From Parcubacteria group bacterium (GTDB lineage Bacteria > Patescibacteriota > Minisyncoccia > Minisyncoccales > JAVHRH01), in NCBI GenBank assembly GCA_036171555.1, contig JAVHRH010000069.1, positions 1 through 29,385 of the forward strand: 29,385 bases of DNA. The letters run 5' to 3'. The notes beneath the pieces were generated by a model. It made no database searches. It worked only from the letters and a program-made list of their open reading frames with translations, and was not told the origin of the DNA. This document shows positions 297 through 29,175 of the stretch, piece by piece (position 1 is the first letter of the stretch; every line of letters begins with the position of its first letter). The position numbers were made by a program, and so were the translations under genes.

Positions 297-353
297 TAGC
301 AAGCTTTCGCTACGCGAAAGCGCAGCTGGAAAAGAGGATTTATCCTCTTTGAC
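297..353 (+). repeat. Double-hairpin REP-like element, copy A1
   Basis: tagcaagctttcgc-tac-gcgaaagcgcagctggaaaagaggat-tt-atcctctttgac; near-identical copies at 1409-1465 (inverted) and 3640-3692. Confidence 0.85.
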
Positions 354-366
354 CGTTAATTATTAA

Positions 367-1380
367 TTATCTTTTTGGCGCAATTTTTTGAAAAAATTTT
401 TTAATATTGTCAGAAAAAATTTCAAAGCTCAATTTGATTAAGATGATAATGCCAACCAAAGAAATAACGATTTCGGCTCCTCTCAGAAGAAAACTGAAGG
501 TAACCCCAACCGCCGCTCCCAAACCAAAAGAACTAAAAACAAAAGCTTCGGCAACGTCTAAGCTGCCAAAACCAGCTGGCGTCGGAAAGCTATAAGCCAG
601 GTAAAGGAAAGACATCAAAGACAAAGCAATCAGAAGGCTGACTTGATGCGTTAAGAAAAACATCAGCAGCCAGCAGCGGAAAAAGATTAAAAAATATCTT
701 AAAAAGGCTATGCCTAATCCTTGCCACATGGTTTTTTTCTTAAATTCAAAAAAAGTAAAAATTTCCCTTTCAATCTCCTGAGTTATATGGCCGTCTTTTA
801 TTTCTTTGCCGAAAAAACGCCAAATTAGCTTAAAAATGCTCTCTTTTCGGAACGATTTAAAATAGAAAACAAATAAGCCTAAACTCAAGGCGCCAATAAT
901 AACGGCGGCAGCTAAAGCCACCTGGCGAGGCAAAGTGTGGTTTAGAAGAAGAAAGGACAGGAAACCGCCGATTAGAAAGAACCAAGCCACACTGGCACTG
1001 AGCATTTTTTCAATGATAACGGCAGCACAATTTTTCCCCCAAGGAATATTAGTCTTTTTATGCAAAGCATACGTTCTAAAACCCTCGCCGCCAAAAATAG
1101 CGGTGGGGGTCAGTAAATAGGTGATGGCGTTGCTGGAAAAAACAATTCTTAATAAGGTTTTTTTAGAATAATCACTCCCTTGAGAATGCAAAACAAATTG
1201 CCACTTCCAAAGACCAACTAACCAAATTATAAGAGTAACGAGAAGAATAATTAAACTTTCCTGACCTGAAAAACTAAAGATAATTTTTTTTACCTGTTCC
1301 CAACCAACCAGATTCAAAACCCACACAAACATGCCTATACCGACTAGAAAAGAAAGCAGAAAAAATAAAATCTTTTTCAT
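367..1380 (-). CDS. Lysylphosphatidylglycerol-synthase TM / flippase-like membrane protein (UPF0104 type)
   Basis: 337 aa polytopic protein with RW-like LWKW, TP..GGEG.R and P.PAGFG..E motifs typical of the family. Confidence 0.75.
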   Translation of the reverse strand: MKKILFFLLSFLVGIGMFVWVLNLVGWEQVKKIIFSFSGQESLIILLVTLIIWLVGLWKWQFVLHSQGSDYSKKTLLRIVFSSNAITYLLTPTAIFGGEGFRTYALHKKTNIPWGKNCAAVIIEKMLSASVAWFFLIGGFLSFLLLNHTLPRQVALAAAVIIGALSLGLFVFYFKSFRKESIFKLIWRFFGKEIKDGHITQEIEREIFTFFEFKKKTMWQGLGIAFLRYFLIFFRCWLLMFFLTHQVSLLIALSLMSFLYLAYSFPTPAGFGSLDVAEAFVFSSFGLGAAVGVTFSFLLRGAEIVISLVGIIILIKLSFEIFSDNIKKFFQKIAPKR

Positions 1381-1386
1381 GATTAT

Positions 1387-2202
1387 TTAGTGGGTATTAA
1401 CATAATTAGTCAAAGAGGATAAATCCTCTTTTCCATCTGCGCTTTTGCTACGCGAAAGCTTGCTATCTAAAAAAGAAACGATTACTGAGCTGATTTTAGG
1501 CGAATTCCAGGAATAGTCATGGCCATTAATTTGAAAAACTTGTGAAAAAGAAATGTTTTGTTCGTTTAATTTAGCCCAAAACCATTTAAAAGGTGCTGCT
1601 AACGCGGTCGAGAGCAACGGTTTGACGTTCCCCTCAACCAGACTGTCTTTACCGTTATTATTCAGCTGCAGAATATTGTTTGATTTAAAATTATCCGCCC
1701 AAAATGGCGTACCGGCAGTTATCGCGTAAACCGAATTTTGCACTTTAAAAGAAAGCTTTCGGTATGTTTCGCTAACAAAATCACCGCCATTAGAAAGACC
1801 GGCTAAAATTATTTTTTTATCAGGGAAATTTTTGTTTAAAGCTTCGATTTTAGCGGCCAAGTCTTGAGAGGAATTCGAAAAAGAATTAAAGAATTCTTTC
1901 GCTCCGCTAATTTTTCCCAATAAATTTTCTCTGGTCCTTTGATAAGGCAAAACTATAGAATTATATCCTAATTGATTAAGGGTTTGTTGAATACCCTCAA
2001 CCACCGGAGCAAAATCTTTGGCTTTGTCCAGGGGCGTATTTCCCCAGCCGCCGGAATTAAAAATAATAATGACATCTTTATTCTGAACGGATTGGCTAAT
2101 TTCCGGCAATTGAAAATTATCCGGCAAAACGATGGGCCCGAAAAGAATTAATAAACCGGCTGATAAGGCTGAAAATAAAATTAAGTATTTTAATTTTTGC
2201 AT
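1387..2202 (-). CDS. Membrane-anchored alpha/beta-hydrolase-fold protein
   Basis: N-terminal hydrophobic helix, G-x-S-x-G elbow (ILAGLSNGG), later candidate Asp (KDSL) and His (GHDY). ATG 2202 preferred over TTG 2211. The last ~25 codons derive from repeat A2. Confidence 0.55.
   Translation of the reverse strand: MQKLKYLILFSALSAGLLILFGPIVLPDNFQLPEISQSVQNKDVIIIFNSGGWGNTPLDKAKDFAPVVEGIQQTLNQLGYNSIVLPYQRTRENLLGKISGAKEFFNSFSNSSQDLAAKIEALNKNFPDKKIILAGLSNGGDFVSETYRKLSFKVQNSVYAITAGTPFWADNFKSNNILQLNNNGKDSLVEGNVKPLLSTALAAPFKWFWAKLNEQNISFSQVFQINGHDYSWNSPKISSVIVSFLDSKLSRSKSADGKEDLSSLTNYVNTH
1409..1465 (-). repeat. Double-hairpin REP-like element, copy A2 (inside the CDS 3' end)
   Basis: Minus strand reads tagcaagctttcgc-gta-gcaaaagcgcagatggaaaagaggatttatcctctttgac, matching A1. 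Confidence 0.85.
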
Positions 2203-2819
2203 TCTTGACAAAATATTTTTTCAACGGTTCTGATAAAATCAAGCAGAACCGGATCGTCAATAATTTCTTTTATCCATCTCATCCAAAGCCGATGTTGAAT
2301 TTTCCCATACTTTTTCCAGTATTCCAAACCTTGCAAAAGATTTTCAGCCTTATCAGCTTGTTTCACGTACCTACCTTCTTTTGTCAGGCCATTTTCAAAA
2401 TCCAGCCAGAGATTTTTAATTTCGGCTTTTAAATCGGCGGGTAATTTTTTGATAAGCTTGTTTAAAGAATGTGATTCTAATTTAAACTTATCTTTTTGTT
2501 TTTTAATTTTTAAAGATGGAGTAAATTTCGGCCAATTTTGTAAAACTTCCATCATTTTCTTTTTGTTTTTAGGCAATAAAGGATCGTAAGGCGTCAAATC
2601 CGGGGCATAAACTTCGCATAAATCATGGACTAAAGCTAATTTAATCACTCTTTCCAGGCTCATTTTTCTTTTTCTGGCCAATAACCAAGCTAAAATCGCC
2701 ATTCTGAAAATATGTTCGGCCGTACTTTCCGGATTTTTAATTTGGTGAACCACCCAGCCTCTTCTGAATTTTCTCTTCAGTTTGCCTATTTCAATTAAAA
2801 AATTAAGGATTTCCTCCAT
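2190..2819 (-). CDS. HD-domain phosphohydrolase (YfbR/HDDC2-like 5'-deoxynucleotidase family)
   Basis: RRGW, ES.AEH.FR, ALVHDLCE and QADK motifs. Start placed at MEEIL (2819) because the track's extension runs through a terminator. Confidence 0.85.
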   Translation of the reverse strand: MEEILNFLIEIGKLKRKFRRGWVVHQIKNPESTAEHIFRMAILAWLLARKRKMSLERVIKLALVHDLCEVYAPDLTPYDPLLPKNKKKMMEVLQNWPKFTPSLKIKKQKDKFKLESHSLNKLIKKLPADLKAEIKNLWLDFENGLTKEGRYVKQADKAENLLQGLEYWKKYGKIQHRLWMRWIKEIIDDPVLLDFIRTVEKIFCQECKN

Positions 2820-2847
2820 CGACTTTACTTTATCATCTATCTGGTCA

Positions 2848-2878
2848 ACAAAAAAGAGGGGCAAAACGCCCCTCTTTT
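2848..2878 (-). terminator. Intrinsic terminator after greA
   Basis: Minus strand: aaaagaggggc-gtttt-gcccctctttt followed by more T residues. Confidence 0.75.
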
Positions 2879-2896
2879 AGCTATTAAAATGCCGTT

Positions 2897-3370
2897 CTAG
2901 CTAGAATTGTATCTTATTTTCTTTATCTTGTAAGCTGTCTGGATGGGAGAAGAAACAATAACTTTATCGCCCGCCCGATGGCCCAGCAAAGCTTTGCCTA
3001 CCGGCGATTCATTGGAAATCTTACCGACCGAAGGATTGGCCTCCAGAGAACCGACTAAGGTGAATTCATCGTTCTGACCGTCAACTTCCACCGAAACCGT
3101 CGCCCCCAGATTAATGGTATTTTGTCTTTCCTTGTTGGGGCTTTTGATAATTTCAGCATTTTTCAAAGTATTCTCCAATTCGGCCAATCTTATTTCCAAA
3201 AAGCTCAAATCTTCCTGAAAAGCCAAGTATTCGGGATTCAAATCTTCTGAATGTAAAAGCTTCGGAGATTCTCCTTTGGTTTTAGCGAGCTTTAGCTCTT
3301 TCAGATCGCGATATTCCCGTTTTAACCTTTCTAATCCTTCTTTAGTTAAATAAAACTTTTTTTCCTCCAT
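2897..3370 (-). CDS. greA: GreA/GreB-family transcription factor with a divergent coiled-coil tip
   Basis: LT.EG...L N-terminus and C-terminal LVGS.EANP...ISNESPVGKALLG...G signature. The tip reads HSEDLNPEY instead of GDLxENAEY. Confidence 0.85.
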   Translation of the reverse strand: MEEKKFYLTKEGLERLKREYRDLKELKLAKTKGESPKLLHSEDLNPEYLAFQEDLSFLEIRLAELENTLKNAEIIKSPNKERQNTINLGATVSVEVDGQNDEFTLVGSLEANPSVGKISNESPVGKALLGHRAGDKVIVSSPIQTAYKIKKIRYNSS

Positions 3371-3377
3371 GTTTTTT

Positions 3378-3402
3378 ATAAAATCCCCTGTAGCGAGGGG
3401 AC
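3378..3402 (-). terminator. Terminator-like hairpin just upstream of the greA start
   Basis: Minus strand: gtcccct-cgctac-aggggattttat, ending about 8 nt before the ATG. Confidence 0.4.
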
Positions 3403-3605
3403 TTATAGTTTTTAATTAGTGTGGCTATAAATCCTCTCAGCAAATCATTTTACCAAAAGTCAAAACCAAAATGGCGTAAGACCATTTAGCAAGATGAGGA
3501 TTATTTCTGATTTTTTCTTTACTGGTTATTATCATGTTTTAGTTTAGAAAATTAAGTAAGATGTCTTTTTTTCTTTGTTTTCTAAAGTTTCTTTCCGTAT
3601 AATCC

Positions 3606-3634
3606 ATATTAGACAAACCATGAAAGGTTGTCAA
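3606..3634 (-). promoter_or_regulatory. Sigma70-type promoter ahead of the greA leader
   Basis: TTGACA (3634-3629), 17 nt, TAATAT (3611-3606). Confidence 0.55.
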
Positions 3635-3639
3635 GTACC

Positions 3640-3714
3640 AAGCTTTCGCTACGCGAAAGCGCAGGTGGAAAAGAAGATTTATCTTCTTTGACTGCCGAAC
3701 TCCGCTACGCGGAG
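3640..3714 (+). repeat. Double-hairpin element copy A3 plus an extra ctccgc-tac-gcggag hairpin
   Basis: 3640-3692 matches A1, with a compensatory G-C to A-T pair in stem 2 (aaagaAgat..atcTtcttt). Third hairpin at 3700-3714. Confidence 0.85.
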
Positions 3715-3731
3715 CAAGCCGAAAAATAGAG

Positions 3732-4613
3732 TTACACTATCGGCGGATTCCAACCCTTAGGCGTTAGAGGCAATTCCCCGACTGAAACATCAATATGTTT
3801 TACGCCAGATTCTAATCTTATTTCTTTGGCGATGAAATTTTCAATGCTTTCCAAATTAGGCGTAACAATGCTGACTAATAAATTATATCTCCCAGAAATT
3901 TTTACTAAATGATAAACCAAAGGAGATTTTTCAAATTTTTCGATAAGTTGATTAATTGTTTTATTGTCTGCTTCAATTTCAATGTGGGCACTGACTGAAT
4001 ATACTTTTCCCATATTTAACAACCCTTGAATTTTCAAAACTCCGTCTGCTATCAATCTTTCTACACGATTTTTAATGCCGACGGGGCTTAGCCCTGTTCC
4101 TTTGGCAATTTCCACAAATGATTCTCTACCATCTTTGGAAAGAGCCTGAATAATCTTTAAATCCAATCCATCTAGTCTCTCTAAACTCCAAGGCGCATAA
4201 GCAGAATATCCTTCAACAGAAAAATCAGCTAAACCTGTTCTATCGCACAAAACAGCAAATTTTATATCTTTTATTTTTAATCTTTCTTTTTTAGCCCTCA
4301 TCGCCTCCATGGCTCTTTTATAGCTTTTGCCAGAAATTATATCATTATCAACCAACAATATTTTTCTTCCCCTAATCTTTTCCTCTGCCAACATCTTTCC
4401 GTTATCGTCCATCTGGACAAAAATAATATTTTTATTTTTGTGGCTTAACCACTGATAAAGACCTAGACCATAAATGTAGCCATCGTCTCCCAAACCAACA
4501 ATAGCTCCCTTGTCTTTTTTAAAATATTGGACAACGCTTTTGCCGATACCATCGATAAATTTTTGAATTGGCGGAAGATTATAGAGAATATTTTTCGGCA
4601 TATTTTTTAACAT
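3732..4613 (-). CDS. Lrp/AsnC transcriptional regulator with an N-terminal phosphoribosyltransferase-like domain
   Basis: Residues ~1-135 carry a PRPP-loop-like motif (KILLVDNDIISGKS). Residues ~147-293 carry an AsnC HTH (LDGLDLKIIQALSKDGRESFVEIAK..GLS..GIKNRVERL) and a RAM domain (ISGRYNLL). The start may be 4601. Confidence 0.75.
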   Translation of the reverse strand: MLKNMPKNILYNLPPIQKFIDGIGKSVVQYFKKDKGAIVGLGDDGYIYGLGLYQWLSHKNKNIIFVQMDDNGKMLAEEKIRGRKILLVDNDIISGKSYKRAMEAMRAKKERLKIKDIKFAVLCDRTGLADFSVEGYSAYAPWSLERLDGLDLKIIQALSKDGRESFVEIAKGTGLSPVGIKNRVERLIADGVLKIQGLLNMGKVYSVSAHIEIEADNKTINQLIEKFEKSPLVYHLVKISGRYNLLVSIVTPNLESIENFIAKEIRLESGVKHIDVSVGELPLTPKGWNPPIV

Positions 4614-5466
4614 AATATTTTATTAATTGATCTTTAATTTCAGGATTAGCAACCGCAATCAATAAATCAACTTTATCATGCTGCCTCCCGGGAATAAATT
4701 CGTAATCTTTATAATTGCCGTCGGAATCAACGCTAATCACCGAGCAACCGGCACATTTTGCCATCGGAAAACCGGGATCGATTTCCGAACGGGGTTCATC
4801 AAACATTACATAAGCATCAATTAAGCCCGAAGCCAAATAAGCATAAATAAATGAACCGCCCTGTGGATAAAGCAGAGATTTAGAATGCAGATTTTTTAAT
4901 AAATCTCCGAAAATATCCAAGAATTTAGAAGAGTATTGAGAGCTCATTACATAAGAGGCTAAAACAATGGGTTCAGTTATTTTTTTTCTAGATGAGGAAA
5001 AAATTTTCTTCTTCCCATTATTTTTCATATCTAATAGATAGTTTTCACCATTATTCATAATGTAAAATTTTTCATTCAAAATGTCAGCAATTCCAGTGGC
5101 AATTGGTCTTCTTTCTTTGTCATAAAAACTCAGAGCAGTGTACCAATTCTGTTCAAATCCCCTTAAAAAAAGAACTGAACCGTCAAAAGGGTCAATTGAA
5201 CCATAAATTTCAGGATTTTCTCCGCCAGTTTTAATATCTCTACCGTCCGGCTCGGAAAAAATAGTTGCTTTTAATTTGTATTTTTTAACGAGTTTTTCCG
5301 CAATTTCCTCTCCTATTCTATCAATTCCGATTTCAATATCTTCCGGCCGATTTATCACCTCACCCAAAATCTCCCGGCCCTGGCCGGCCGCAGCTCTTTT
5401 CTTGACTTCTTCTGTAGTCAAAGTTAAATAATCAATGAGTAATTTTTTAATTTTTTCCTTGTCCAT
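4579..5466 (-). CDS. Inositol monophosphatase/FBPase-family phosphatase (candidate HisN-type histidinol-phosphate phosphatase)
   Basis: Metal motifs FSE and IDPFDGS, C-terminal EIDPG; lies directly downstream of hisC. Confidence 0.75.
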   Translation of the reverse strand: MDKEKIKKLLIDYLTLTTEEVKKRAAAGQGREILGEVINRPEDIEIGIDRIGEEIAEKLVKKYKLKATIFSEPDGRDIKTGGENPEIYGSIDPFDGSVLFLRGFEQNWYTALSFYDKERRPIATGIADILNEKFYIMNNGENYLLDMKNNGKKKIFSSSRKKITEPIVLASYVMSSQYSSKFLDIFGDLLKNLHSKSLLYPQGGSFIYAYLASGLIDAYVMFDEPRSEIDPGFPMAKCAGCSVISVDSDGNYKDYEFIPGRQHDKVDLLIAVANPEIKDQLIKYYVKKYAEKYSL

Positions 5467-5486
5467 GACTTTTAATTTACACCCAA

Positions 5487-6557
5487 TTAAACCACGCTGT
5501 CAAGCATCTCGCCAAGCGCTTTAATAAGAGATCCTGTATCTTTAAGAGTGCCGATGCTGATTCTAACTGCATCTTGCCCGTCAGCGGCCGATTTGGGCCT
5601 GACCAAAATACCTTTCTCTTTCAATCTTTCTATCAATTCTTTGGGATTGGGAACTTTCAGGAGTAAGTAATTAGCTGCGCTCGGATAAAAGAAAATCCCT
5701 TTTTCTCTCAAAAAATTCTCTAGTTTAGGCTTAGATTCCTCCATAACCTCCTTAATATAAGCTTCCATATATGGAATATCAGCCAAGGCAGACAGAATGC
5801 CGATTTTGGCGAACATATTAACGTCATAAGGTCCTCTGATTTTCAGCAATTCCTGGATATTTTTTCCATTAGAAATGACATAACCCGCCCGGCTCGCCAC
5901 CAACCCAAAAGCTTTGGCGAAAGTCCTTAAAATATAAAGGTTGTCGTATCTTTCTATTAAACCCTTGGCCGTGATTTTAGCGAATTCAAAATAAGCCTCG
6001 TCGTGCAAAACAGCTATATCTTTTTCTTTCGCCTTAATTAAGATTTTTTCAATATCTTCGATGGAAATCGCACTGCCTAAAGGATTATTGGGATTGCAAA
6101 GAATAATCAATTTTACCTTTGGGTCTTCAATTAAATTAATAATTTCGGCCAAAGGCAGTTCTCCCTGTTCATTGTATCGCGGCTCTAAAATTTCGGCTCC
6201 TTGAATGCCGGCTGATTGATAGTGCATGGCAAAAGCCGGAAAAGGAATAATAACTTTATCCCCTTCGCCTAAATAAGCACGGCAGACAAGATCAATTCCC
6301 TGGTCGCCGCCATTAGTCACCATAGCTTCGTCCGCTTTTACTCCGGCATATTCGGCAATCTTTGCCTCCAAATCACCGTATTCCGGATAAACCTGTAATC
6401 TGTCTAGGTCAACAAACTTTCTCAAGGCCTCTTTGACTTTGAGGCTGGCCGGAGTCGTCCTCTCGTTGAAATCTAAAAGTAAATAATCTTTAGAACCGCG
6501 CCCTTCGAGGGGCGGTTTGTAATGACCCATTTTTTTGATTCTGTCTTTGATTGCCAT
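5487..6557 (-). CDS. hisC: Histidinol-phosphate aminotransferase
   Basis: Class I/II PLP motifs NE, TNGGDQGI, CNPNNPLG, DEAY, RTFAKAFGL..RAGY (PLP Lys), ANY, RISIG; adjacent to hisB. Confidence 0.85.
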   Translation of the reverse strand: MAIKDRIKKMGHYKPPLEGRGSKDYLLLDFNERTTPASLKVKEALRKFVDLDRLQVYPEYGDLEAKIAEYAGVKADEAMVTNGGDQGIDLVCRAYLGEGDKVIIPFPAFAMHYQSAGIQGAEILEPRYNEQGELPLAEIINLIEDPKVKLIILCNPNNPLGSAISIEDIEKILIKAKEKDIAVLHDEAYFEFAKITAKGLIERYDNLYILRTFAKAFGLVASRAGYVISNGKNIQELLKIRGPYDVNMFAKIGILSALADIPYMEAYIKEVMEESKPKLENFLREKGIFFYPSAANYLLLKVPNPKELIERLKEKGILVRPKSAADGQDAVRISIGTLKDTGSLIKALGEMLDSVV

Positions 6558-6561
6558 TTTT

Positions 6562-7152: not shown

Positions 7153-7159
7153 ATGTGTT

Positions 7160-7195: not shown

Positions 7196-7233
7196 GTATT
7201 GTAAAATATGTTCTTTATAGGGAGGTATTAATA

Positions 7234-14541: not shown

Positions 14542-14579
14542 AAATAATAAAAATTAATGTTTACCTAGAACGACCTTTA

Positions 14580-14635
14580 CTCAAAGAGGACTTCGTCCTC
14601 TTTTCGATCTGCGCCGCGCCTAACGCGGCTTGCTA
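14580..14635 (-). repeat. Double-hairpin element, diverged copy A4 (contains the stop codon of the upstream gene)
   Basis: Minus strand: tagcaag-ccgcg-ttagg-cgcgg-cgcagatcgaaaagaggac-gaa-gtcctctttgag. Flanks and linker match A1-A3; the hairpin contents differ. Confidence 0.7.
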
Positions 14636-15201
14636 ATTAATTTTTTTTCTTTTTTGATCCGCTCAATAAGTTTCCTGACTAAAATTTTCGGGTCTTTTTC
14701 ATAAATTATCTTGTTGACGCCGCGGTAAGGAACCGTAATAATCTGTTTAATTTTATCGGCCGTACCGCCCGTTCCCTCCAAAACGCCAATCGGTTTTTGT
14801 ATTTCAAAAGCCGTGGCAAATTCATGCAAAGTACCAATACGGCCGCAGATAATAATAACGCCGTCGGCGGATTTTGTCATAATAATGTTTCTTCCGGGAT
14901 AATCGGCGCCGGTATAAATCATCACATCAAAAGGCTCTAACGGCAATTTATAGGTTTCCAAATGCGCTTTTTCCGAAGCAGCCGGCGAGAAGCCGATATT
15001 AAAACCATTTTCTTCTTCGCAACCCAAAGCCGCCAAATATGGGACTCCCGTCGTGGCACCAGTCACCAAGTTGCACTTTTGCCGAGCTATCTCCCGGCCA
15101 ACTTCTTTAGCAATTTCTTCAATGCCATTACAGCAGTGACCGATATCAGCGGCTCCTGAAACCACGATTTCGAATTTTTCTTTTTTAGCGTGATTCTCCA
15201 T
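14620..15201 (-). CDS. LOG/SLOG-family (Rossmann-like, TIGR00725-type) nucleotide-binding protein
   Basis: VVSGAA, LVTGATTGVP, GFSP, RNII...ADGVIII.GRIGTLHEF..A, KPIGVL.GTGG motifs. Confidence 0.8.
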   Translation of the reverse strand: MENHAKKEKFEIVVSGAADIGHCCNGIEEIAKEVGREIARQKCNLVTGATTGVPYLAALGCEEENGFNIGFSPAASEKAHLETYKLPLEPFDVMIYTGADYPGRNIIMTKSADGVIIICGRIGTLHEFATAFEIQKPIGVLEGTGGTADKIKQIITVPYRGVNKIIYEKDPKILVRKLIERIKKEKKLISKPR

Positions 15202-15244
15202 GATAAATTTATTTTAGCATAAGTTGTCAAAGAAGATAAATCTC

Positions 15245-15316
15245 TTAGGCGATGAAGTTTACCCCTTCGGGTTTGCCTTCATCTTCACCTTCGTTTTCGC
15301 TTCGCGAAAACTCGGT
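15245..15316 (-). repeat. Double-hairpin element, copy B1
   Basis: Minus strand: ccgag-ttttcgc-gaa-gcgaaaa-cgaaggtgaa-gatgaaggcaaaccc-gaa-ggggtaaacttcatc-gcctaa. Bases 15250-15284 are the exact reverse complement of 20254-20288. Confidence 0.85.
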
Positions 15317-15320
15317 AATT

Positions 15321-15351
15321 AAAAAACTCCTGCTAAAAACAGAAGTTTTTT
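15321..15351 (-). terminator. Intrinsic terminator
   Basis: Minus strand: aaaaaacttctg-tttttag-caggagtttttt (one G-U pair in the minus-strand RNA). Confidence 0.65.
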
Positions 15352-20253: not shown

Positions 20254-20288
20254 AGATGAAGGCAAACCCGAAGGGGTAAACTTCATCG
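20254..20288 (+). repeat. Hairpin element B2
   Basis: agatgaaggcaaacccgaaggggtaaacttcatcg; exact 35-bp reverse complement of 15250-15284. Confidence 0.9.
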
Positions 20289-22358: not shown

Positions 22359-22359
22359 T
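22312..22359 (+). repeat. REP-like inverted doublet forming the uvrB 3' end
   Basis: tccttcgactccgctcagg (22312-22330) and a degenerate inverted partner cctgagaaagccgaaggg (22337-22354); encodes LRLRSGSTLRKPKG*. Confidence 0.7.
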
Positions 22360-22390
22360 TAAAAAACTGAATTATGGTAAATAAAGATAT

Positions 22391-22657: not shown

Positions 22658-23573
22658 ATAAATCTAAAGCCACTTCAGGATCAACCTTGCCCGTTTTGAT
22701 ATCAAGGTCTACCTCAAATAACTTTTGGTAGATTTTTTTTAATTCCAAAAAGGTAAATTTTGCGGCTAACTCATAACTTTTTCTAACCACAAAAGGATGC
22801 ATTTTAGTTTCTTTTAAAATAGCGTAATAAGGCCTGTTCTTTTCCATTAAGTCTTTGATGATTAATAAATTTCTCAACTGAAAATTAATCATGGAAAGTA
22901 AATATAAAACCGCTTCTCCTTTTTGCAGGTGATGATGAATTAAAGAAAGCGCTTGTTTTTTGTTTTTTTGCGCGATCATGCCGATTGTTTTAAAAATGTC
23001 GGTCTCGATAATCGGCTTGACTAAAAGTTTTATATCTTCAACCGCAATCGTTTCACCCTTTTTAAAGTCAGCCAATTTTTTAATTTCATTGGACAGTTGC
23101 CAAAGATCAGAACCTACATAGTCTAAAAGCAGATCCAATGCCTGAAGGTTAATTTTAACCTGTTGGTTAGCCAACTCTTTTTCCAGCCAATTTTCAAGCA
23201 ATCTTCCTTCTAAAACGGCGAATTCCTGCGATTTGGTTTTTTCTTTTAACAAATCGAGCAGTTTTTCCTTTTTGGGCGCATCTTCTTCATAGACGACAAG
23301 GAGGTCGGAGGAGTCAAGAAGTTTTTTATAATTTTCCAATAATTTTTCCTTAAAAAGCTTGTTGGCAAAGATATTTCGGATAACAATCATTTTTTTCTCA
23401 CCAAACATAGAAATCTGTTGCAATCCGTCAATTAAATCATTAAACGGCTCGCAGCTAGCGTCAAAATATTTTAAACTTAAACCTTCGGGATTGGTTTTTT
23501 TATATCCGTCAATCATCTCGTTTAATTTTTGCCGCGACCGGTAAGTATCCGGTCCATAAAGAAAAAACAGCAT
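22641..23573 (-). CDS. holA: DNA polymerase III delta subunit
   Basis: LYGPD.Y, SMFGEKK, G.DLWQL.NEI.KL, HPFVV.K and D..IKTG motifs. Confidence 0.9.
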   Translation of the reverse strand: MLFFLYGPDTYRSRQKLNEMIDGYKKTNPEGLSLKYFDASCEPFNDLIDGLQQISMFGEKKMIVIRNIFANKLFKEKLLENYKKLLDSSDLLVVYEEDAPKKEKLLDLLKEKTKSQEFAVLEGRLLENWLEKELANQQVKINLQALDLLLDYVGSDLWQLSNEIKKLADFKKGETIAVEDIKLLVKPIIETDIFKTIGMIAQKNKKQALSLIHHHLQKGEAVLYLLSMINFQLRNLLIIKDLMEKNRPYYAILKETKMHPFVVRKSYELAAKFTFLELKKIYQKLFEVDLDIKTGKVDPEVALDLFISSI

Positions 23574-23574
23574 A

Positions 23575-24306
23575 CTATAACTGACAATTAGGGCAAAAAT
23601 GCGCGCTTCTGCCGCCTATTTTCACCCTTTTAACCAGACCTTGGCAACGATAGCACTTTTCACCTTCTTTACCGTAAACTTTCAAATGTGAAAAATAACC
23701 GCCGGTCCGGCCATAGACATCGAGATAATCCTGAGAAGTCGTACCGCGTAACTTTATGGCTTTGGCCAATATTTTTTTTATATTAAGACAAATCTGCCTG
23801 ATCTCTTGTTTATCCAGAGAACTCGCCTTTCGCAACGGATTAATTTTAGCGGCAAACAAAATCTCGTCAGAATAAATATTGCCGATACCTGAAATTACTT
23901 TTTGATTCATTAATAATGACTTAATTTTGACTTTCGGATGTTTCTTCACCATGTCTTTGAAAGTTGACGGATCAACGTCCGGAGCTTCCGGCCCGAATTC
24001 TTTCTCTATCTTACTCGTATCTTTAACTCTTTTCCACCAGCCGAATTTTCGCACATCATTAAAAATTAAATTGGTACCATCGTTAAAATAAAAAACCCGG
24101 CGAGTGTGAGCCGAAGGTTTACCGTTAAAAATCAACTGGCCGGTTAATTTTAAATGGAATAATAAACTGCCGTCCTTCTTAAAATCGATGATTAGAAGCT
24201 TGGCTCTTCTTCTTACGCCCGTGATTAATTTTCCGTTTAATCTCTTGCCAACGATTTCTTGCGCCAGTTGTCGACGAATCGTTTCTACTTCCGGCAATTC
24301 AGGCAT
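23575..24306 (-). CDS. mutM: Formamidopyrimidine-DNA glycosylase
   Basis: MPELPEVET, RRAK, HLKLTG, D.RKFG, GIGNIYSDE and the C-terminal CYRC...CPNCQ zinc finger. Confidence 0.95.
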   Translation of the reverse strand: MPELPEVETIRRQLAQEIVGKRLNGKLITGVRRRAKLLIIDFKKDGSLLFHLKLTGQLIFNGKPSAHTRRVFYFNDGTNLIFNDVRKFGWWKRVKDTSKIEKEFGPEAPDVDPSTFKDMVKKHPKVKIKSLLMNQKVISGIGNIYSDEILFAAKINPLRKASSLDKQEIRQICLNIKKILAKAIKLRGTTSQDYLDVYGRTGGYFSHLKVYGKEGEKCYRCQGLVKRVKIGGRSAHFCPNCQL

Positions 24307-24676
24307 TGGTTTTGAGAATTGACTGAATTTTTTCGATTATTTCGCCCGGAGTAAAATGAGCCTTTATTAAATAATCATTAGCTCCTAATTTTAAACCTTT
24401 TTCAATATCTTCTTTCTGCCCAAGGTTGGAAAGAATAATGACGGGGATCGCGACTAAATTGGCCTCGGCTTTTATTCGAGATAAAACTTCGAAACCGTCA
24501 ATGCCGGGCAAGATTAAATCAAGCAAAATTATATCAGGTTTTTCTTCTTTGGCTTTCTTGACCCCTTCTTCGCCGTCAATGGCCTGAACGACATTATATC
24601 CCTCCTTAACCAGCTTTTGGCTGATTAATTCCCTTAAAAATTTGTCGTCCTCAACAACAAGAATAGTTTGCGGCAT
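24299..24676 (-). CDS. Stand-alone response regulator receiver
   Basis: VVEDD, ILLDLILP (phospho-Asp), LSN, YLIK; no output domain. Confidence 0.92.
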   Translation of the reverse strand: MPQTILVVEDDKFLRELISQKLVKEGYNVVQAIDGEEGVKKAKEEKPDIILLDLILPGIDGFEVLSRIKAEANLVAIPVIILSNLGQKEDIEKGLKLGANDYLIKAHFTPGEIIEKIQSILKTNA

Positions 24677-24681
24677 AAATT

Positions 24682-25053
24682 TTATTTACCTATCTGCTTA
24701 ATAACTTTAACGAGAACTTCTTGCGGCTCAAAGTTAGTTTTAATCAACCAATCCCTGGCTCCCAATTTTTGGGCCTGGCTGATTTCAACGGGCTGGCCGG
24801 AATTAGAAACAATCACAATGGGAATTTTTTTCAGCTCGTTATCTTTTTGGACCTCCTGCATCACTCCAAATCCGTCGATTTTGGGCATAACGATATCCAG
24901 CAAAATAAGATCGGGCCTTATCTCTCGGATTAATTTTAGACCTTCTTCGCCGTCTCGGGCAACCGAAACGTCATAACCTTCCTGGCTTAATTTTTTCTGG
25001 AGCAAATTAAGAAGAATTTCTTCGTCCTCGACTATTAGAATCTTTTTAGCCAT
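24682..25053 (-). CDS. Stand-alone response regulator receiver
   Basis: IVEDE, ILLDIVMP, VSN, WLIK; no output domain. Confidence 0.92.
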   Translation of the reverse strand: MAKKILIVEDEEILLNLLQKKLSQEGYDVSVARDGEEGLKLIREIRPDLILLDIVMPKIDGFGVMQEVQKDNELKKIPIVIVSNSGQPVEISQAQKLGARDWLIKTNFEPQEVLVKVIKQIGK

Positions 25054-25131
25054 ACTTTATTATATCAAATTTTATTAACTAATTAAAACTCCTCGAACTC
25101 CCGACTCACAAGGAGGGAGAGAGAAGAATTA

Positions 25132-26736
25132 TTAAAACTCTTTTAAGAATTCTTCGAACTCTTTACCCACCGACAGAGTAAAATAAAAAGTCGCTCCCTC
25201 GTTTTCTTTCGATTCGAACCAAACTTTGCCGCCATGCGCTTCAATAATATTTTTACAAATGAATAAGCCGAGACCGGAGCCCTCGGTATCCATTCTGACC
25301 ACGTTGGCTCCCCGAAAAAATTTAGTAAAAACTCGGGGTTGCTGATCCAAGGGAATGCCGACTCCGCTGTCTTTAACTGAAAATTCAATTTCTTTGCTTT
25401 CTTCCAGATATCTCAAGAAAATATTAATTTTACCGCCGGCTGGAGTATACTTCATGGCGTTGTCTATAAAGTTCTGGATGACTAACCTGATTTTTTCAAC
25501 ATCAACCGCGATTTTGGGCATTTTATCGCCAGCCTTTTTAAATTCTATTTTCAAATTTCTTTTGGCGGCTTCATCTTTGCTGGAGTTAACGACGAAGTGA
25601 ACGAGATCAGCCAAATCAGTCAAAACGGTCCGATAAATATATTTCCCCTCTTCGATGCGAGTTATGTCCAAAAGATCGTTAATCAGAGCAATCATCCTTT
25701 CATTGCTCTGGTAACTCTTTTCTAAAATTTCTCGCTGCTCCTTATTTATTTCTCCCAAATCACCGTCTAAAAGCATTCTTAGAGTCCATTTGATGGCGGC
25801 CAAAGGAGTACGCAGCTGGTGAGCCGACAAAGAAACGAATTCGGTTTTAATTTTTTCCACCGTTTTCTCCCGGGTAATATCATGCAAAATTACCAAGACG
25901 CCAAACTCCTTGCCCTGGTTTGACATCGAAATTGTCGATATTTCTAAAGTCAAATCTTTTCTGATTTCCAATTCTTTTCTAAAAATTCCCCGGATTTCTT
26001 TTTTTAAAAGATTGGTTAAAAGAGCTAATTCCGTTATCTCGGTTATTTCTGAAACTGACCTGCCGACAATCCGGTTAATCGGAACATTAAAAAACTTTCC
26101 GATTTGAGGGTTGGCTAAAGAAATTCGGCTGTTTTCGTCAAGAACCAATAAGCCATCTGAGAAATTGGCGATAATCGTTAAGGTTTTATTTTTTTCTTCC
26201 TCGGCTTTTTTGCGTTCATTCTCCACGTCCTCCAAAATATTCATTAAGGCCTTCCGGGAATTATCCAGTTGCTGCGTTCTAGTTCTCACTCTTTTTTCCA
26301 ATTCTTCGTGCGTTTTTTTTGTCTCGGTAATATCGGCGATGGCCAGAAAGTATCCGATAAATTTTCCTGCCACGTCTTTTCTTGTCGAAACAGAAACAGC
26401 CACGGGAATTTGTTTGTTACTCTTAGAGACGACGCTTAATTCTTCGTTCTTAATTCCGCCCTCCTTTTGCGTTTTTTTAAGCAAACCGTCTATTCCTTTT
26501 TTTTCTGAAAAAATTTTTTCTAAAGGTTCTCCGGTTATTTCTATCGCGCTATAACCGGTTAAGTTTTGCAAAGCCTGATTTATATCGATAATAATTTTTG
26601 GGGGATTAACGGTACAAATTGCCAAAGGCAAAAAAGAAGTAAATTCTTTTATATACCTCTCCAAGTCTTCTAAATCTTCCTCCACCCTGCGAAGCTTTAT
26701 CCCGGTGGTTTCTTTTTCAGAATTAAATTTATTCAT
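25132..26736 (-). CDS. Cytoplasmic PAS-PAS sensor histidine kinase
   Basis: Two PAS-like segments separated by a coiled coil; H-box SAHQLRTPL, N-box DNAMKYT, D.G.GI, F-box and GSGLGL. No hydrophobic TM helix. Confidence 0.92.
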   Translation of the reverse strand: MNKFNSEKETTGIKLRRVEEDLEDLERYIKEFTSFLPLAICTVNPPKIIIDINQALQNLTGYSAIEITGEPLEKIFSEKKGIDGLLKKTQKEGGIKNEELSVVSKSNKQIPVAVSVSTRKDVAGKFIGYFLAIADITETKKTHEELEKRVRTRTQQLDNSRKALMNILEDVENERKKAEEEKNKTLTIIANFSDGLLVLDENSRISLANPQIGKFFNVPINRIVGRSVSEITEITELALLTNLLKKEIRGIFRKELEIRKDLTLEISTISMSNQGKEFGVLVILHDITREKTVEKIKTEFVSLSAHQLRTPLAAIKWTLRMLLDGDLGEINKEQREILEKSYQSNERMIALINDLLDITRIEEGKYIYRTVLTDLADLVHFVVNSSKDEAAKRNLKIEFKKAGDKMPKIAVDVEKIRLVIQNFIDNAMKYTPAGGKINIFLRYLEESKEIEFSVKDSGVGIPLDQQPRVFTKFFRGANVVRMDTEGSGLGLFICKNIIEAHGGKVWFESKENEGATFYFTLSVGKEFEEFLKEF

Positions 26737-26739
26737 GTT

Positions 26740-27345
26740 TTACTCCCAAGTCACGACGAATTCGTGATAAGGATCTCCTCTAAACACGCATTTTGTTTCT
26801 TTTACCTTATTATTCTTGGTGTTTTTCAATAAATACTGGCTTATTCTGATGAAATAACCGCCCAAATAAACGCACAAAATGGGGTGGACTTTAAAATTTT
26901 TAAGACGGACCAGGAAATATTTGTCTTTCAAGGAATAGCCGGGAGTTTCCAACTGTCCGGTTGTATAATGTTTCACCCAATATTTTGGACTTTCGTCATA
27001 GGTCATCCGAATAGTTGAAAAATATTTTAAAAACATTTTCACTATAAAGGAATACTTGGGTGCCGCATTACCCATATCTTCTATTTCCTTATCACCCCAA
27101 TCAAATACTTTTTTAATGGCCAAAAGAGAAATTGCCCTTAGGCCTAAGGGATACCAGCCGGTGGCTTTAATGTTTTCGTAATCAACGGGACAACCGATCT
27201 TTTTTAATTCTTCTTTCACTTTTAATAATCCTTCCTTTCCTTTTTTATTCTGGACATATTCGGCATCGGTTTGGAAAACAACTCCTCTGGCCTCTCCGGG
27301 AGTTCCCATTAATTTTTTTATTTCTTCTTTAGCAAAATCTTCCAC
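26740..27345 (-). CDS. Hypothetical protein with a possible V4R/H-NOX-like ligand-binding fold
   Basis: WYPLG, conserved-looking Cys (ILCVYLGGYF) and C-terminal ETKCVFRGDPYHEFVVTW, which resembles the V4R end motif E..C...G...C/H.F; GTG start. Confidence 0.5.
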   Translation of the reverse strand: MEDFAKEEIKKLMGTPGEARGVVFQTDAEYVQNKKGKEGLLKVKEELKKIGCPVDYENIKATGWYPLGLRAISLLAIKKVFDWGDKEIEDMGNAAPKYSFIVKMFLKYFSTIRMTYDESPKYWVKHYTTGQLETPGYSLKDKYFLVRLKNFKVHPILCVYLGGYFIRISQYLLKNTKNNKVKETKCVFRGDPYHEFVVTWE

Positions 27346-27359
27346 AAGTTAAGAGCTGT

Positions 27360-27689
27360 TTACTGATTATTTTGTTGATTTTTTTTAAGGTTTTTTATTT
27401 CTTCTTTTAATTCAATCATCTTCAACTCTCGGCCTACGGCCAGCTTATTAAACTTTTCCAGTTCTTTTATTTTTTCTTGAAGTTCCCGGGTCCTTGCCTG
27501 CACTTCGTTTTCTAAATTATCAGCCAGGCTTTCAAGCTCTCTGGTTCTGGCTTTAATTCTTATGGCCAAAACTGATTCCATTTCTTCGCGATCTTCGGCT
27601 GTTTTTTTCAGCTTTTTTTGGTAGAAAATAATCAGAAAAAACAAAATCAACCCCAGCAAAATATTAAAAGAGAAAGAAAGATAAGACAT
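27360..27689 (-). CDS. Small single-TM coiled-coil protein resembling a sensor-kinase linker
   Basis: N-terminal hydrophobic helix, then repeated RTREL and ELEKFNKLAVGRELKMIELK coiled coil. Confidence 0.65.
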   Translation of the reverse strand: MSYLSFSFNILLGLILFFLIIFYQKKLKKTAEDREEMESVLAIRIKARTRELESLADNLENEVQARTRELQEKIKELEKFNKLAVGRELKMIELKEEIKNLKKNQQNNQ

Positions 27690-27703
27690 GTTGTTTTAAT
27701 ATT

Positions 27704-28648
27704 TTACCATAATTTTAAGTTCTCTCGAACTGCTTCTTTTTTTTCTTCGTTTAAACGGCCGATTAAACTGTGAAATTCAAACTCTTGCAGCTTTTTAATA
27801 ACTTCGGCTTTATCATAATCGCCGAAAACGCATTGTTTTAAACTGAATTCAACCGGCGTATTTTTTTCGATTTGAGCCAATTCGCGGGAAAAAAAAGCCT
27901 GGTCTTTATATTTTAATAAAGTTTCTTTTAATTTGGGGCTGATTTCTTTGGCTTCAGCGGATTTATCTTTTATTCCTTGGTATAAGTTTTCCAAAGTGCC
28001 AAAACTTAAAAGTAATTTGGTGGCTGTTTTTTCTCCTATCCCCGTAACCCCCGGAATATTGTCGGAAGGATCGCCTCGCAAAGCTTTAAAGTCCAGGAGC
28101 TGCCCGACTTTTAATCCTTGAAATTTTTCCTCAACCGCCTTTTCGTCATACAAGACAATGTCTTTGACCCCTTTTCTCAAGGCAAAAACCTTAGTTTGAG
28201 GATTGACCAATTGGAACGAGTCCTGGTCTCCGCTCAAAATAATCGTTTCAATCTTAGGAAAAACCTGTTTTTTGGGAGCTAATCTGGCGATGGTGCCGAT
28301 AATATCATCCGCTTCAAACCCTTCTTTTTCAAAAATAGCCACGCCAAAAGCTGTCAATATTTCTTTAACCAGGGGAATCTGTTGATATAATCCAGGGGGA
28401 GCCGGCGGACGCTTCGCCTTGTAATCTTTGAATTTTTTGTGGCGGAAGGTTGGCTTCGGGCAGTCAAAGGCGGCCGCAATATAATTGGGTTGGAAATCTT
28501 TAATCGCTTTTAAAAAAACCAGCAAGAAACCGTAGACTGCATTGACCAATTCGCCTTTTTTAGTCGTTAAGGGCGGCAAAGCATGAAAAGCCCGGTGGAT
28601 AACCGAATTAGAATCGATGATGATAAGACGTTTTTTATCTTGAACCAT
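27704..28648 (-). CDS. Stand-alone 5'-3' exonuclease (PolA N-terminal domain)
   Basis: IDSNS..HRAFHA, NAVYGF, AFD, TFRH, YKA.R, EADD..GT, SGD.D and GDPSDNIPGV.GIGEKTA; no polymerase domain. Confidence 0.92.
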   Translation of the reverse strand: MVQDKKRLIIIDSNSVIHRAFHALPPLTTKKGELVNAVYGFLLVFLKAIKDFQPNYIAAAFDCPKPTFRHKKFKDYKAKRPPAPPGLYQQIPLVKEILTAFGVAIFEKEGFEADDIIGTIARLAPKKQVFPKIETIILSGDQDSFQLVNPQTKVFALRKGVKDIVLYDEKAVEEKFQGLKVGQLLDFKALRGDPSDNIPGVTGIGEKTATKLLLSFGTLENLYQGIKDKSAEAKEISPKLKETLLKYKDQAFFSRELAQIEKNTPVEFSLKQCVFGDYDKAEVIKKLQEFEFHSLIGRLNEEKKEAVRENLKLW

Positions 28649-29093
28649 AATTTATCTTAATTTTTCTGACGCTTTGATTGATAAAATCAAAAGATATCCG
28701 GATGACATTTTTCGGTAAAATACTTTTTATTTTATCCGCCCATTCTAAAGCCACGATGTTCTGCGGATTAGAAATAATTTCTCTAAAGCCCAACTCTAAA
28801 ATCTCTTTTGGCTTTCCAATTCGATAGCAATCAAAATGATAAAAGTTTTGGAATTTGGTATTTGGTATTCGGAATTTTTTCATCAGAACAAATGTCGGGC
28901 TGGTTATTTTTTCTTTAATTCCCAACCCCTTGGCAAATCCCTGTAAAAAGGTTGTTTTGCCTCCACCCAAATCACCTTTTAGCCCCAAAACAAAAGCACC
29001 CGTCTTTTTTTTAGTCATCACAATTTCCTTGGCCAAAATCTCGCCCAATTTCTTGGTTTGTTTGGGACTATGGGTTAAATAAATAAGCTGCAT
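28635..29093 (-). CDS. tsaE: tRNA threonylcarbamoyladenosine biosynthesis ATPase
   Basis: GDLGGGKTT, TSPTF, HFDCYR and EWA motifs. Start set at MQLIY; the track's extension is repeat C. Confidence 0.93.
   Translation of the reverse strand: MQLIYLTHSPKQTKKLGEILAKEIVMTKKKTGAFVLGLKGDLGGGKTTFLQGFAKGLGIKEKITSPTFVLMKKFRIPNTKFQNFYHFDCYRIGKPKEILELGFREIISNPQNIVALEWADKIKSILPKNVIRISFDFINQSVRKIKINYGSR
28845..28879. repeat. Degenerate 7-bp tandem array inside tsaE
   Basis: gttttgg-aatttgg-tatttgg-tattcgg-aattttt. Confidence 0.65.
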
Positions 29094-29101
29094 GGATGTT
29101 T

Positions 29102-29175
29102 TTAGGCGAAGAGGGATACGACCCTCTTCTTCAGCTTCGTCCCGACAATGTCGGGCGAAGCTCGTTGACTTCATC
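29102..29175 (-). repeat. Double-hairpin element, copy C
   Basis: Minus strand: gatgaagtcaacgagcttcg-cccgacattgtcggg-acgaagctgaagaagaggg-tcgtat-ccctcttcgcctaa. The linker and 3' end match B1 and A. Confidence 0.75.

Follow-up and report, generated by a model that had tools for sequence, protein, structure and literature searches.

A dispersed two-hairpin repeat family behaves as mobile DNA in Nealsonbacteria-like CPR bacteria

CPR bacteria have genomes that are among the smallest and most compact of all cells and are usually considered poor in mobile DNA. The 29,385-nt contig analysed here (the window; Parcubacteria group bacterium, JAVHRH010000069.1) carries seven hairpin-forming places that a first-pass annotation had read as a dispersed mobile family. 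The locus raises the question whether these sequences are copies of one repeat, whether this repeat moves, and by which means. A covariance model (R1) of the family was scanned against the window, its own genome and relatives. All seven places are genuine copies or pieces of one family, as judged by sequence, R1 and a repeat search, with R1 E-values of 1e-18 to 3e-6 for six window copies. The copies and modules in the window are the following:

298-353, plus strand: copy A1, element proper A6 to C66; R1 match 293-356, 80.8 bits
1409-1464, minus strand: copy A2, sense, upstream of the LPG synthase gene; R1 match 1406-1469, 79.9 bits
3637-3692, plus strand: copy A3, between an AsnC-like gene and the GreA promoter; R1 match 3632-3695, 78.3 bits
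3693-3720, strand not assigned: extra lone hairpin-1-like module that abuts A3, TCCGC TAC GCGGA with flanks
14580-14634, minus strand: copy A4, hairpin 1 rich in G+C, hairpin 2 with a C-GAA-G loop; R1 match 14577-14639, 64.7 bits
15224-15316, minus strand: composite copy B; R1 match 15245-15321, 55.2 bits; nhmmer match 15224-15322
20254-20288, plus strand: lone B-type hairpin-2 module, 100% complementary to 15250-15284 in the repeat search
29105-29162, minus strand: divergent copy C, sense, 17 nt upstream of the likely TsaE start; R1 match 29102-29167, 34.7 bits

Copy A1 is antisense to its flanking minus-strand genes and occupies the spacer from the LPG-synthase stop (367) to the MFS start codon (295), so that 2 nt separate its end from the MFS ATG; in the relatives L117, L118 and L119 the two genes overlap or are 2 nt apart. 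ORF 1387-2211, which lies upstream, continues through A2, and this gives it an extra tail of ~27 residues in the ORF list when set against L167 (2650-2756). At the A3 site copies with quite different hairpin-1 stems are present in L167 and L169, and the lone module beside A3, a weak minus-strand nhmmer match, is found in L169 too. The stop codon of a LOG-family gene (14620-14622) falls inside the hairpin-1 loop of A4. In copy B a longer GAAGATGAAGG...CTTCATCGCC hairpin stands in place of hairpin 2, of which a partial remnant is left at 15224-15244, and the module at 20254-20288 repeats, inverted and without mismatch, the inner hairpin of the 15245-15321 copy. Copy C is spanned by a long ORF call (28635-29177), with the Pfam TsaE match starting at residue 36.

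Each element is made up of two adjoining hairpins, the first closed by a 3-bp helix (P0) and a conserved 2x3 internal loop, the second following directly and resting on a G-C or C-G pair over a tandem G.A/A.G mismatch. The scaffold described earlier agrees with both sequence and R1, and P0 is added to it as a third helix. Elements are 56-61 nt long (~45 nt in mini forms, where hairpin 1 reads GC-GTTA-GC or GC-GCTA-GC) and begin with A-[C/G/T]-C-R-A-G, the base two positions ahead being seldom G. The stems had been said to vary yet stay paired, and the alignments bear this out: in 42 copies 92% of cells were paired, against 78% after shuffling and 41-51% with slid partners, and double changes were found in 16 of 20 pairs; in 93 copies from two genomes the values were 95% and 75% shuffled. 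Covariation is strong in all three helices and extends to two positions without Watson-Crick pairs. In the 93-copy set the internal-loop position shows G:A 72, A:C 9 and A:A 7 times, and the tandem mismatch G.A 42, A.C 34 and A.A 12 times, next to an A.G that is present in 89 of the 93 copies.

In total R1 yielded 133 matches in the window's own genome (G000; 578 kb, Nealsonbacteria-like), ~130 copies amounting to 1.4% of its DNA, and 51-78 copies in each of four relatives of the same order. The same scan gave zero copies in 29 other relatives of the order and zero in 150 genomes spread over the class; the complete related genome G031 had no family match, and the hairpin-2 pattern had no match in the viral contigs searched. 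Within a single order of Nealsonbacteria-like CPR bacteria, several lineages have seen the family multiply independently of one another. The copies lie mostly outside genes (85 of 111 nhmmer matches outside called ORFs).

In comparisons of filled with empty sites the family behaves as mobile DNA. At orthologous gene junctions of G000 and the complete genome G030, copies in common amount to 0/19 and 1/21, and where one genome has a copy, the junction in relatives is free of the element and its genes lie tightly together or overlap. Filled and empty sites were also found among L166-L169, at 80-87% DNA identity. What an insertion adds is precisely the two-hairpin unit, and the target site is not duplicated, as in L167, where the boundaries (slashes) read GTTT/AGCAAG...CTTCGAC/TTAA and the empty site of L168 reads GTTTTTAA. 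Boundaries and target were derived from four or five such comparisons, each ambiguous by ~1 nt, and place the insertion point three bases 3' of a native T-Y-A. Upstream of 93 copies a T is found at -6 in 90, a pyrimidine at -5 in 92 and an A at -4 in 74 cases; the corresponding counts in independent metagenome copies are 101, 109 and 74 out of 110. The complete T-Y-A at -6 to -4 precedes 65-79% of copies (65% in the metagenome copies), against a background of 4%. The 3' end of the element, T-Y-G-M-C-T, is similar to its own target; a pairing between the T-C-A flank and the 3' T-G-A was rejected, as the two do not covary. Close copies form head-to-tail arrays, one base apart, and all 21 pairs less than 130 nt apart are on the same strand. 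A few inverted neighbouring copies exist as well, for example in L117. Owing to these presence/absence differences at orthologous sites and to the many copies, the family is mobile DNA, as first proposed, and not a set of convergent terminators.

Which strand folds is indicated by several asymmetries. C-GNA-G is the prevailing loop in both hairpins, and on the plus strand we counted ~50 loops of the C-GNA-G or C-AAA-G type and ~5 of the reverse type, as well as 31 G.A/A.G against 3 C.T/T.C in paired columns. The plus strand folds more stably in 80 of 93 copies with RNA parameters and in 87 of 93 with DNA parameters, while G.T versus A.C mismatches favour it weakly (34 vs 23, p = 0.18). The asymmetry of loops and stability is consistent with the GNA mini-hairpins in single-stranded DNA that had been stressed before. 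These loop types hint that the folded form is the DNA strand, from which we infer that single-stranded DNA, and not RNA, is the active form.

On balance we lean towards a non-autonomous two-hairpin mobile DNA element that is structure-dependent and REP/IS200-like, for which no mobilising enzyme was found. Its plus strand would be recognised as folded single-stranded DNA by a nuclease or transferase acting in trans, which may cut and join this strand beside the target, as is the case for IS200/IS605 ends or REPs. The transposase had been assumed to lie merely outside the window, whereas searches of the genome as assembled found no known one. The five element-rich genomes followed in these searches include G000, G018, G026, G030 and G039. 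No Y1_Tnp (PF01797) match was obtained in G000, G018 and G039, i.e. three of the five, all searched as assembled and partly as incomplete drafts. TnpB was found in G026 only, Y2_Tnp gave no match in the five genomes and likewise none in control genomes, and DDE_Tnp_1 and IS110 gave no match in any of the five. A single weak, sub-threshold rve match occurred in G000; together with the lack of a duplication, these results led us to reject a TIR-type MITE moved by a DDE enzyme. Reverse transcriptase was rejected because its occurrence is uncorrelated with the element. No searched known transposase family occurs in all element-rich genomes. A subtractive proteome comparison (ORFs of G000 with a homologue in G030 and none in element-free G031) left 55 candidates, and the 30 of these run through Pfam were mostly housekeeping genes. 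PIF1 helicase, a LAGLIDADG-like 232-aa family and DUF763 were discarded, as none tracks the element across 41 genomes. Genes flanked by inverted copies are ordinary genes or an uncharacterised CPR protein. It is conceivable, if doubtful, that the mover belongs to a type of enzyme for which no link with transposition has been made so far, either an uncharacterised CPR protein or a core enzyme of replication, repair or recombination, which would recognise the two-hairpin single strand and T-Y-A-N3. If true, the family would represent a new class of minimal, hairpin-only mobile DNA that needs no transposase gene of its own to colonise highly reduced genomes.

The mechanism initially suggested had been that of REPs and REPINs, with a RAYT (Y1 HUH transposase) as the mobilising enzyme. 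In its favour, the copies are numerous, mostly extragenic, hairpin-forming and structure-selected, and Y1_Tnp is present in this order, including the element-rich G026 and the complete, element-rich G030. The gene might have been lost from drafts when short repeat-flanked contigs were dropped in binning, because assemblies break exactly at element copies and an element-flanked gene could be removed in this way. However, Y1 genes are carried by 4 of 7 element-rich genomes and by 18 of 34 others (41 genomes, Fisher p = 1), and G018, whose marker genes indicate 100% completeness, yielded none. A Y1/RAYT gene between elements, the usual arrangement of a RAYT gene and its REPs and one suggested earlier as a check, was not seen: no copy lies within ~1.5 kb of six Y1 genes (one of them in G026), the nearest copies to the G030 gene are ~6 kb off, and the 3 of 120 element-bearing metagenome contigs with a Y1 gene never have it adjoining the element. 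The GTAG/CGTC head is absent too, and copies close together are arranged as direct tandems rather than as inverted doublets. We consider a RAYT mechanism unlikely.

The gene context could also be taken as a sign of function in RNA, with the element serving as intercistronic mRNA stabiliser, processing site or translation coupler and its spread being secondary. Most copies are located between co-directional genes, often spanning the whole spacer from stop to start, and their orientation relative to transcription is uneven (68 vs 31, p = 2.6e-4). Hairpin 2 resembles the stem of the GreA intrinsic terminator, and the rarity of Shine-Dalgarno-like cores (12% of genes of the genome) makes unusual initiation contexts conceivable; hairpin 2 as a Shine-Dalgarno device was dropped in view of this 12% and of a spacing of ~45 nt. 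Yet both orientations are common, at most copies the mRNA would contain the complement, which folds less stably and has C.U mismatches and pyrimidine loops, and no gene pair needs the element, since occupied junctions are element-free in relatives. The copies have no U-tracts and match no curated RNA family (Rfam 15 at gathering score gave tRNA-Arg alone in the window). In about one copy in five an ATG lies exactly 2 nt downstream (17 of 18 of those adjoining a start codon), and this exact spacing is accounted for by the T-C-A target. An RNA-level role as the primary one appears quite improbable to us. For a mobile single-stranded DNA element, start codons would be natural targets, because ATGA reads TCAT on the other strand, and insertions there may be tolerated by selection; this could explain both the copies 2 nt upstream of ATG and the predominance of copies antisense to genes.

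That the hairpins are unrelated terminators that converged, with no repeat family behind them, has practically no chance: hairpin 2 does have a purine-rich 5' arm and a pyrimidine-rich 3' arm like local intrinsic terminators, but the unpaired linker and internal-loop bases are conserved, window copies are 86-93% identical, stems covary, the 133 R1 matches reach down to E = 1e-18 with zero in 29 related genomes, no copy in the window was called by a scan for intrinsic terminators, in which a T-run comes straight after a G+C-rich hairpin, and many copies are located directly upstream of start codons.

A 60-nt element thus accounts for 1.4% of a 0.58 Mb genome, lies inside operons, alters gene ends and sits 2 nt from start codons. 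The ~500 copies collected overall, with rich covariation including non-canonical pairs, form a natural data set for structure-dependent nucleic-acid recognition, and the family supplies a testable target rule and a route to the enzyme via phylogenetic profiling. The repeats also break up short-read assemblies and account for contig breaks and spurious ORF extensions in Nealsonbacteria-like MAGs.

Among known systems, BOX, ERIC and Correia repeats are modular, hairpin-forming and dispersed, often lie within operons and can alter gene ends. Our family has the modular, hairpin-forming and dispersed character in common with them; they are 100-150 nt or longer, and Correia elements have terminal inverted repeats and a TA duplication. 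To our knowledge BOX and ERIC have no cognate transposase, and we know of no element of these types with a two-hairpin core or a T-Y-A target. Integron attC sites are recombination sites recognised as folded single-stranded hairpins, in which structure and a few unpaired bases are conserved and the stem sequence is free, as in our family. They form one-directional cassette arrays beside an integrase gene and have RYYYAAC/GTTRRRY cores, whereas our copies are dispersed in both orientations without such cores, and the rich genomes hold one or two tyrosine-recombinase-family genes each, with none found in G026.

REP/REPIN-RAYT systems (PMC3116915, PMC2817692, PMC3733652) likewise consist of short, abundant, mostly extragenic palindromes with compensatory stem changes, which are non-autonomous and presumed to be recognised as folded single strands. 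In REPs and REPINs one end of the palindrome bears a conserved tetranucleotide, GTAG or CGTC (PMC3733652). Here this head is missing, and in place of a single REP or of two in inverted orientation the unit consists of two different adjoining hairpins. Neighbouring copies form direct tandems, there is an evident T-Y-A-N3 target, no RAYT gene was found that is flanked by the element or occurs together with it, and the host is a CPR genome of 0.5-0.6 Mb.

With the ends of IS200/IS605 elements and their miniature derivatives (IS608: PMC3201880, PMC5934647, PMC5027513) the family has in common a hairpin at each end, a single structured strand, and insertion 3' of a short specific target that is kept on the left flank without duplication. 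In contrast to these, nothing lies between the two hairpins, the whole element measuring 56-61 nt, and TnpA was not found in three of five rich genomes. The cleavage sites of IS608 are some distance from its hairpins, while in our element the target is displaced by 3 nt and directly adjoins the first helix. IS200/IS605 elements favour the lagging-strand template in their orientation (PMC5027513); in G030, a complete genome, the plus strand of the element shows no such preference, being in the lagging-strand template in 26 and in the leading in 33 cases (p = 0.43). Finally, d(GCGNAGC) and d(GCGNNAGC) are known DNA mini-hairpin motifs (PMC13037366, PMC3201870), and both the GC-GNNA-GC mini form of hairpin 1 and the C-GNA-G loops match them; those are structural motifs, whereas the two-hairpin family is a genetic element.

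Each of the places listed in the first-pass annotation as a double hairpin proved on inspection of the sequence to be a copy, or a piece of a copy, of one element, and the window copies are mutually 86-93% alike across 57-58 nt. A common plan was obtained from an alignment of 42 copies of the draft genome G000, of which the window is contig C69, read on the better-folding (plus) strand. In this alignment hairpin 1 (at most 8 bp, loop of 3-4 nt) is closed by a 3-bp helix, P0, which occurs as ACC/GGT, AGC/GCT, AGT/ACT, ATC/GAT or AAC/GTT, and an internal loop reads R-A on its 5' side and G-M-A on its 3' side. Hairpin 2 follows directly 3' of hairpin 1, with a 5' arm rich in purines, a 3' arm rich in pyrimidines, an invariant AAGA/TCTT core and, at its base, a G-C or C-G pair over a tandem G.A/A.G mismatch. 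Pairing is present in 92% of cells in the 42 copies, compared to 78% after shuffling and 41-51% with slid partners, and 16 of 20 pairs show two-sided changes; in 93 copies from two genomes the values are 95% against 75% shuffled, and 371 cells are doubly changed. Covariation extends to two non-canonical positions, one in the internal loop (G:A 72, A:C 9, A:A 7 of the 93 copies) and one in the tandem mismatch (G.A 42, A.C 34, A.A 12), where the adjoining A.G is found in 89 of 93 copies.

The element family carries a strong structural constraint, and it is asymmetric between the strands. Loops on the plus strand, given with their closing pair, are mostly C-GAA-G, C-GCA-G, C-GTA-G or C-AAA-G (roughly 50, versus about 5 of the reverse type), and mismatches in paired columns are G.A or A.G in 31 cases versus C.T or T.C in 3. 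In folding predictions the complement of the plus strand comes out less stable in 80 of 93 copies (RNA parameters) or 87 of 93 (DNA parameters), and G.T and A.C counts (34 vs 23) point in the same direction without being significant (p = 0.18). In its minimal forms hairpin 1 is reduced to GC-GTTA-GC or GC-GCTA-GC. Mini-hairpins of the type GCGNNAGC/GCGNAGC are extraordinarily stable as DNA (PMC13037366, PMC3201870), and the shrunken hairpin 1 corresponds to these motifs, which hints at DNA as the folded form but does not prove it.

A covariance model of the element (R1), as proposed in the first-pass annotation, matched 133 times in G000, a draft of 578,492 bases in 77 contigs (39.8% G+C, 94% complete); this equals one copy per 4.3 kb or about 1.4% of the DNA. 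Among 40 genomes of the same order, each from a different family, 11 contained matches (G018 78, G030 77, G026 66, G039 51, G006 16, G037 12 and five more with 1-6), the other 29 had none, and no match outside the order was found in 150 genomes sampled across the class. The family is therefore real, abundant and restricted to the order. Exact matches to the element core were found in more than 120 metagenome contigs from groundwater and sediment and in none of the viral contigs searched, and the literature searched contains no description of such repeats in Patescibacteria, Parcubacteria or Nealsonbacteria. Public MAGs with exact core matches are labelled Candidatus Nealsonbacteria, Candidatus Paceibacterota and Saccharibacteria (the latter label is probably wrong), and judging from these labels the host is a Nealsonbacteria-like member of the Candidate Phyla Radiation. 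In G000 a Shine-Dalgarno-like core precedes only about 12% of ORFs and A-rich leaders are found instead, so that translation initiation is probably mostly SD-independent.

The comparison of empty and filled orthologous sites suggested in the same annotation revealed presence/absence differences at two distances. Between G000 and the complete, element-rich genome G030 (median orthologue identity 59%) we considered occupied junctions for which the orthologues of both flanking genes are neighbours in the other genome; 0 of 19 were occupied in both (G000 to G030) and 1 of 21 in the reverse direction, the empty junctions being mostly -24 to +59 nt in length. In three relatives LPG synthase and MFS transporter, between which window copy A1 is located, overlap or are 2 nt apart, and the MFS N-terminus can be aligned with that of the relative L117, so the ATG located 2 nt from A1 is the true start. 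Direct comparisons were made with closer relatives (loci L166-L169, 80-87% DNA identity).

State of orthologous sites in the window and its closer relatives
GreA-HD hydrolase spacer: window empty; L167 with a plus-orientation mini copy; L168 with a copy in opposite orientation at another point; L169 with three copies
Site immediately 5' of the GreA start: window and L168 empty; L167 and L169 filled at the same point, with unrelated hairpin-1 stems
LPG synthase 3' end: L166 with a copy within the 3' end of the gene; window empty
A3 site: copies in three relatives with entirely different stems; flanks about 85% identical

The element is accordingly gained and lost at orthologous sites, and the presence of copies with different stems at the same site, together with the filled/empty differences, suggests hot spots that repeatedly receive insertions or have their copies replaced.

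The boundaries follow from L167, filled as GTTT|AGCAAG...CTTCGAC|TTAA, and L168, empty as GTTTTTAA. The number of T's is equal in both, therefore the insert is exactly the two-hairpin unit from A6, the first P0 base, to C66, the closing C of hairpin 2, without duplication; other filled/empty pairs agree to about 1 nt. The bases 5' of the insert belong to the native flank, yet are conserved among copies.

Conservation of the flank before A6 (G000 and G030 copies; independent metagenome copies)
Position -6, T: 90 of 93; 101 of 110
Position -5, pyrimidine: 92 of 93; 109 of 110
Position -4, A: 74 of 93; 74 of 110

T-Y-A is present at -6 to -4 in 65% of the metagenome copies against a background of 4%, so that the point of entry is three bases 3' of T-Y-A, with a preferred target T-Y-A-N3 that is not duplicated. 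The 3' end of the element plus one base (T-Y-G-M-C-T) resembles this target. All 21 copy pairs less than 130 nt apart share a strand and repeat at intervals of roughly the element length plus one base, as would arise if new copies inserted next to a resident one. Two metagenome contigs (L210:7-162 and L212:10085-10179) also carry two or three copies head to tail with a 61-nt period.

The genes near the window copies are ordinary (LPG synthase, MFS transporter, GreA, HD hydrolase, a LOG-family gene, TsaE, tRNA-Arg). Most copies lie between co-directional genes, and there the plus strand is usually antisense to the genes (G000, 48 of 66; G030, 20 of 33; both genomes together 68 vs 31, p = 2.6e-4). 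A long ORF starts on the opposite strand within 12 nt of 18 out of 90 copies, and in 17 of these exactly 2 nt separate the ATG from the element, because the target TCAT reads ATGA, a start codon followed by A, on the other strand. A compact genome has few targets that can take up an insertion and leave the gene intact, and start codons belong to these, which is offered as a reason for the antisense bias. Judged by GC skew, the complete genome G030 has its origin near 295 kb and its terminus near 630/0 kb, in agreement with gene orientation, and its copies show no replication-strand bias (26 on the lagging-strand and 33 on the leading-strand template, p = 0.43).

None of the window copies qualifies as an intrinsic terminator. 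An intrinsic terminator of GreA is located at 2853-2882 (minus strand; AAAAGAGGGGC, loop, GCCCCTCTTTTTT) and at the same site in L167 and L168, with the purine-arm/pyrimidine-arm design of hairpin 2; in both relatives it is followed by ...CTCGGTAAATGA, the opposite strand of which, TCATTT-ACCGAG, is like the target and 5' end of an old copy. Either terminators descend from decayed copies, or hairpin 2 descends from a terminator. A near-consensus promoter (TTGACA-17 nt-TAATAT, 3606-3634, minus strand), kept in L167 and L168, lies next to the 5' flank of A3; its -35 box, on the opposite strand, includes the T-C-A target of that copy.

Copies provide genes with stop codons and C-terminal tails. 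ORF 1387-2211 (minus strand) stays open across copy A2, which lengthens its C-terminus by about 27 residues; its L167 orthologue is called with 251 aa and ends at the start of the L167 copy, the called end (2702) lying on a T-A-G made up of the flank T and the first two element bases (judged from the R1 match starting at 2696). The LOG-family gene has its stop codon in the hairpin 1 loop of A4, and in L166 LPG synthase terminates within a copy. Logan contigs of four groundwater runs start and stop exactly in the copies at 297-353, 1409-1465, 3636-3692 and 15245-15321. Assembly fragmentation in this organism is caused in large part by the family.

Mobilisation by a RAYT/Y1 transposase, as the first-pass annotation had supposed, was not borne out. 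Y1_Tnp (PF01797) is present in 22 of 41 genomes of the order, 4 of 7 element-rich and 18 of 34 others, and was not found in G000, G018 and G039. For any single genome the absence of this or another enzyme gene is weak evidence, as genes flanked by repeats can be missing from drafts and public contigs end at element copies. No element was found near the six Y1 genes examined, and the Y1 genes on 3 of 120 element-bearing metagenome contigs never adjoin one. Among the five rich genomes (G000, G018, G030, G026, G039) TnpB is present only in G026, DDE_Tnp_1 and IS110 were not found, rve gave one weak sub-threshold match in G000, and Y2_Tnp had no match, the control genomes being likewise without one. 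One or two tyrosine recombinase genes (Phage_integrase family) occur in four of the five, with none found in G026, and the distribution of reverse transcriptase does not track the element. Subtracting the proteome of the complete, element-free genome G031 from the ORFs shared by G000 and G030 left 55, of which the 30 scanned with Pfam are mostly housekeeping genes. The distribution in the order was traced for PIF1 helicase, a LAGLIDADG-like family and DUF763, and none of them tracks the element. G031 has no tblastn match to DnaK, DnaJ, GrpE, ComEC and ComM-like proteins of G000, all of which have homologues in G030.

G000 also encodes a family of about 232 aa in three copies (contigs C38:6229-6927, C70:2794-3450 and C32:2360-2917), which lacks a Pfam match and is grouped by a protein atlas with HTH and LAGLIDADG homing endonucleases. 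Of 41 genomes of the order 17 contain it, and two further LAGLIDADG ORFs are on C38. Two large serine recombinases (C6:971-2629 and C68:12155-13723) have a homologue in G030 and none in G031. The one scanned contains Resolvase, Recombinase and zinc-ribbon domains, the second is a paralogue by a shared BLAST match, and they may mark integrated elements.

We infer that the plus strand is recognised as folded single-stranded DNA by a trans-acting enzyme, which would cut it and join it next to the target. The geometry is like that of IS200/IS605 ends, in that the target lies in the left flank, both ends carry a hairpin and duplication is absent (PMC3201880, PMC5934647), and the population behaviour is like that of REPs. 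Against membership in these families, no cognate Y1 gene was found, there is no lagging-strand bias and no GTAG/CGTC head, and doublets are tandem, not inverted as in REP/REPIN. For these reasons we file the element as a new REP/IS200-like variant, with a putative enzyme acting in trans.
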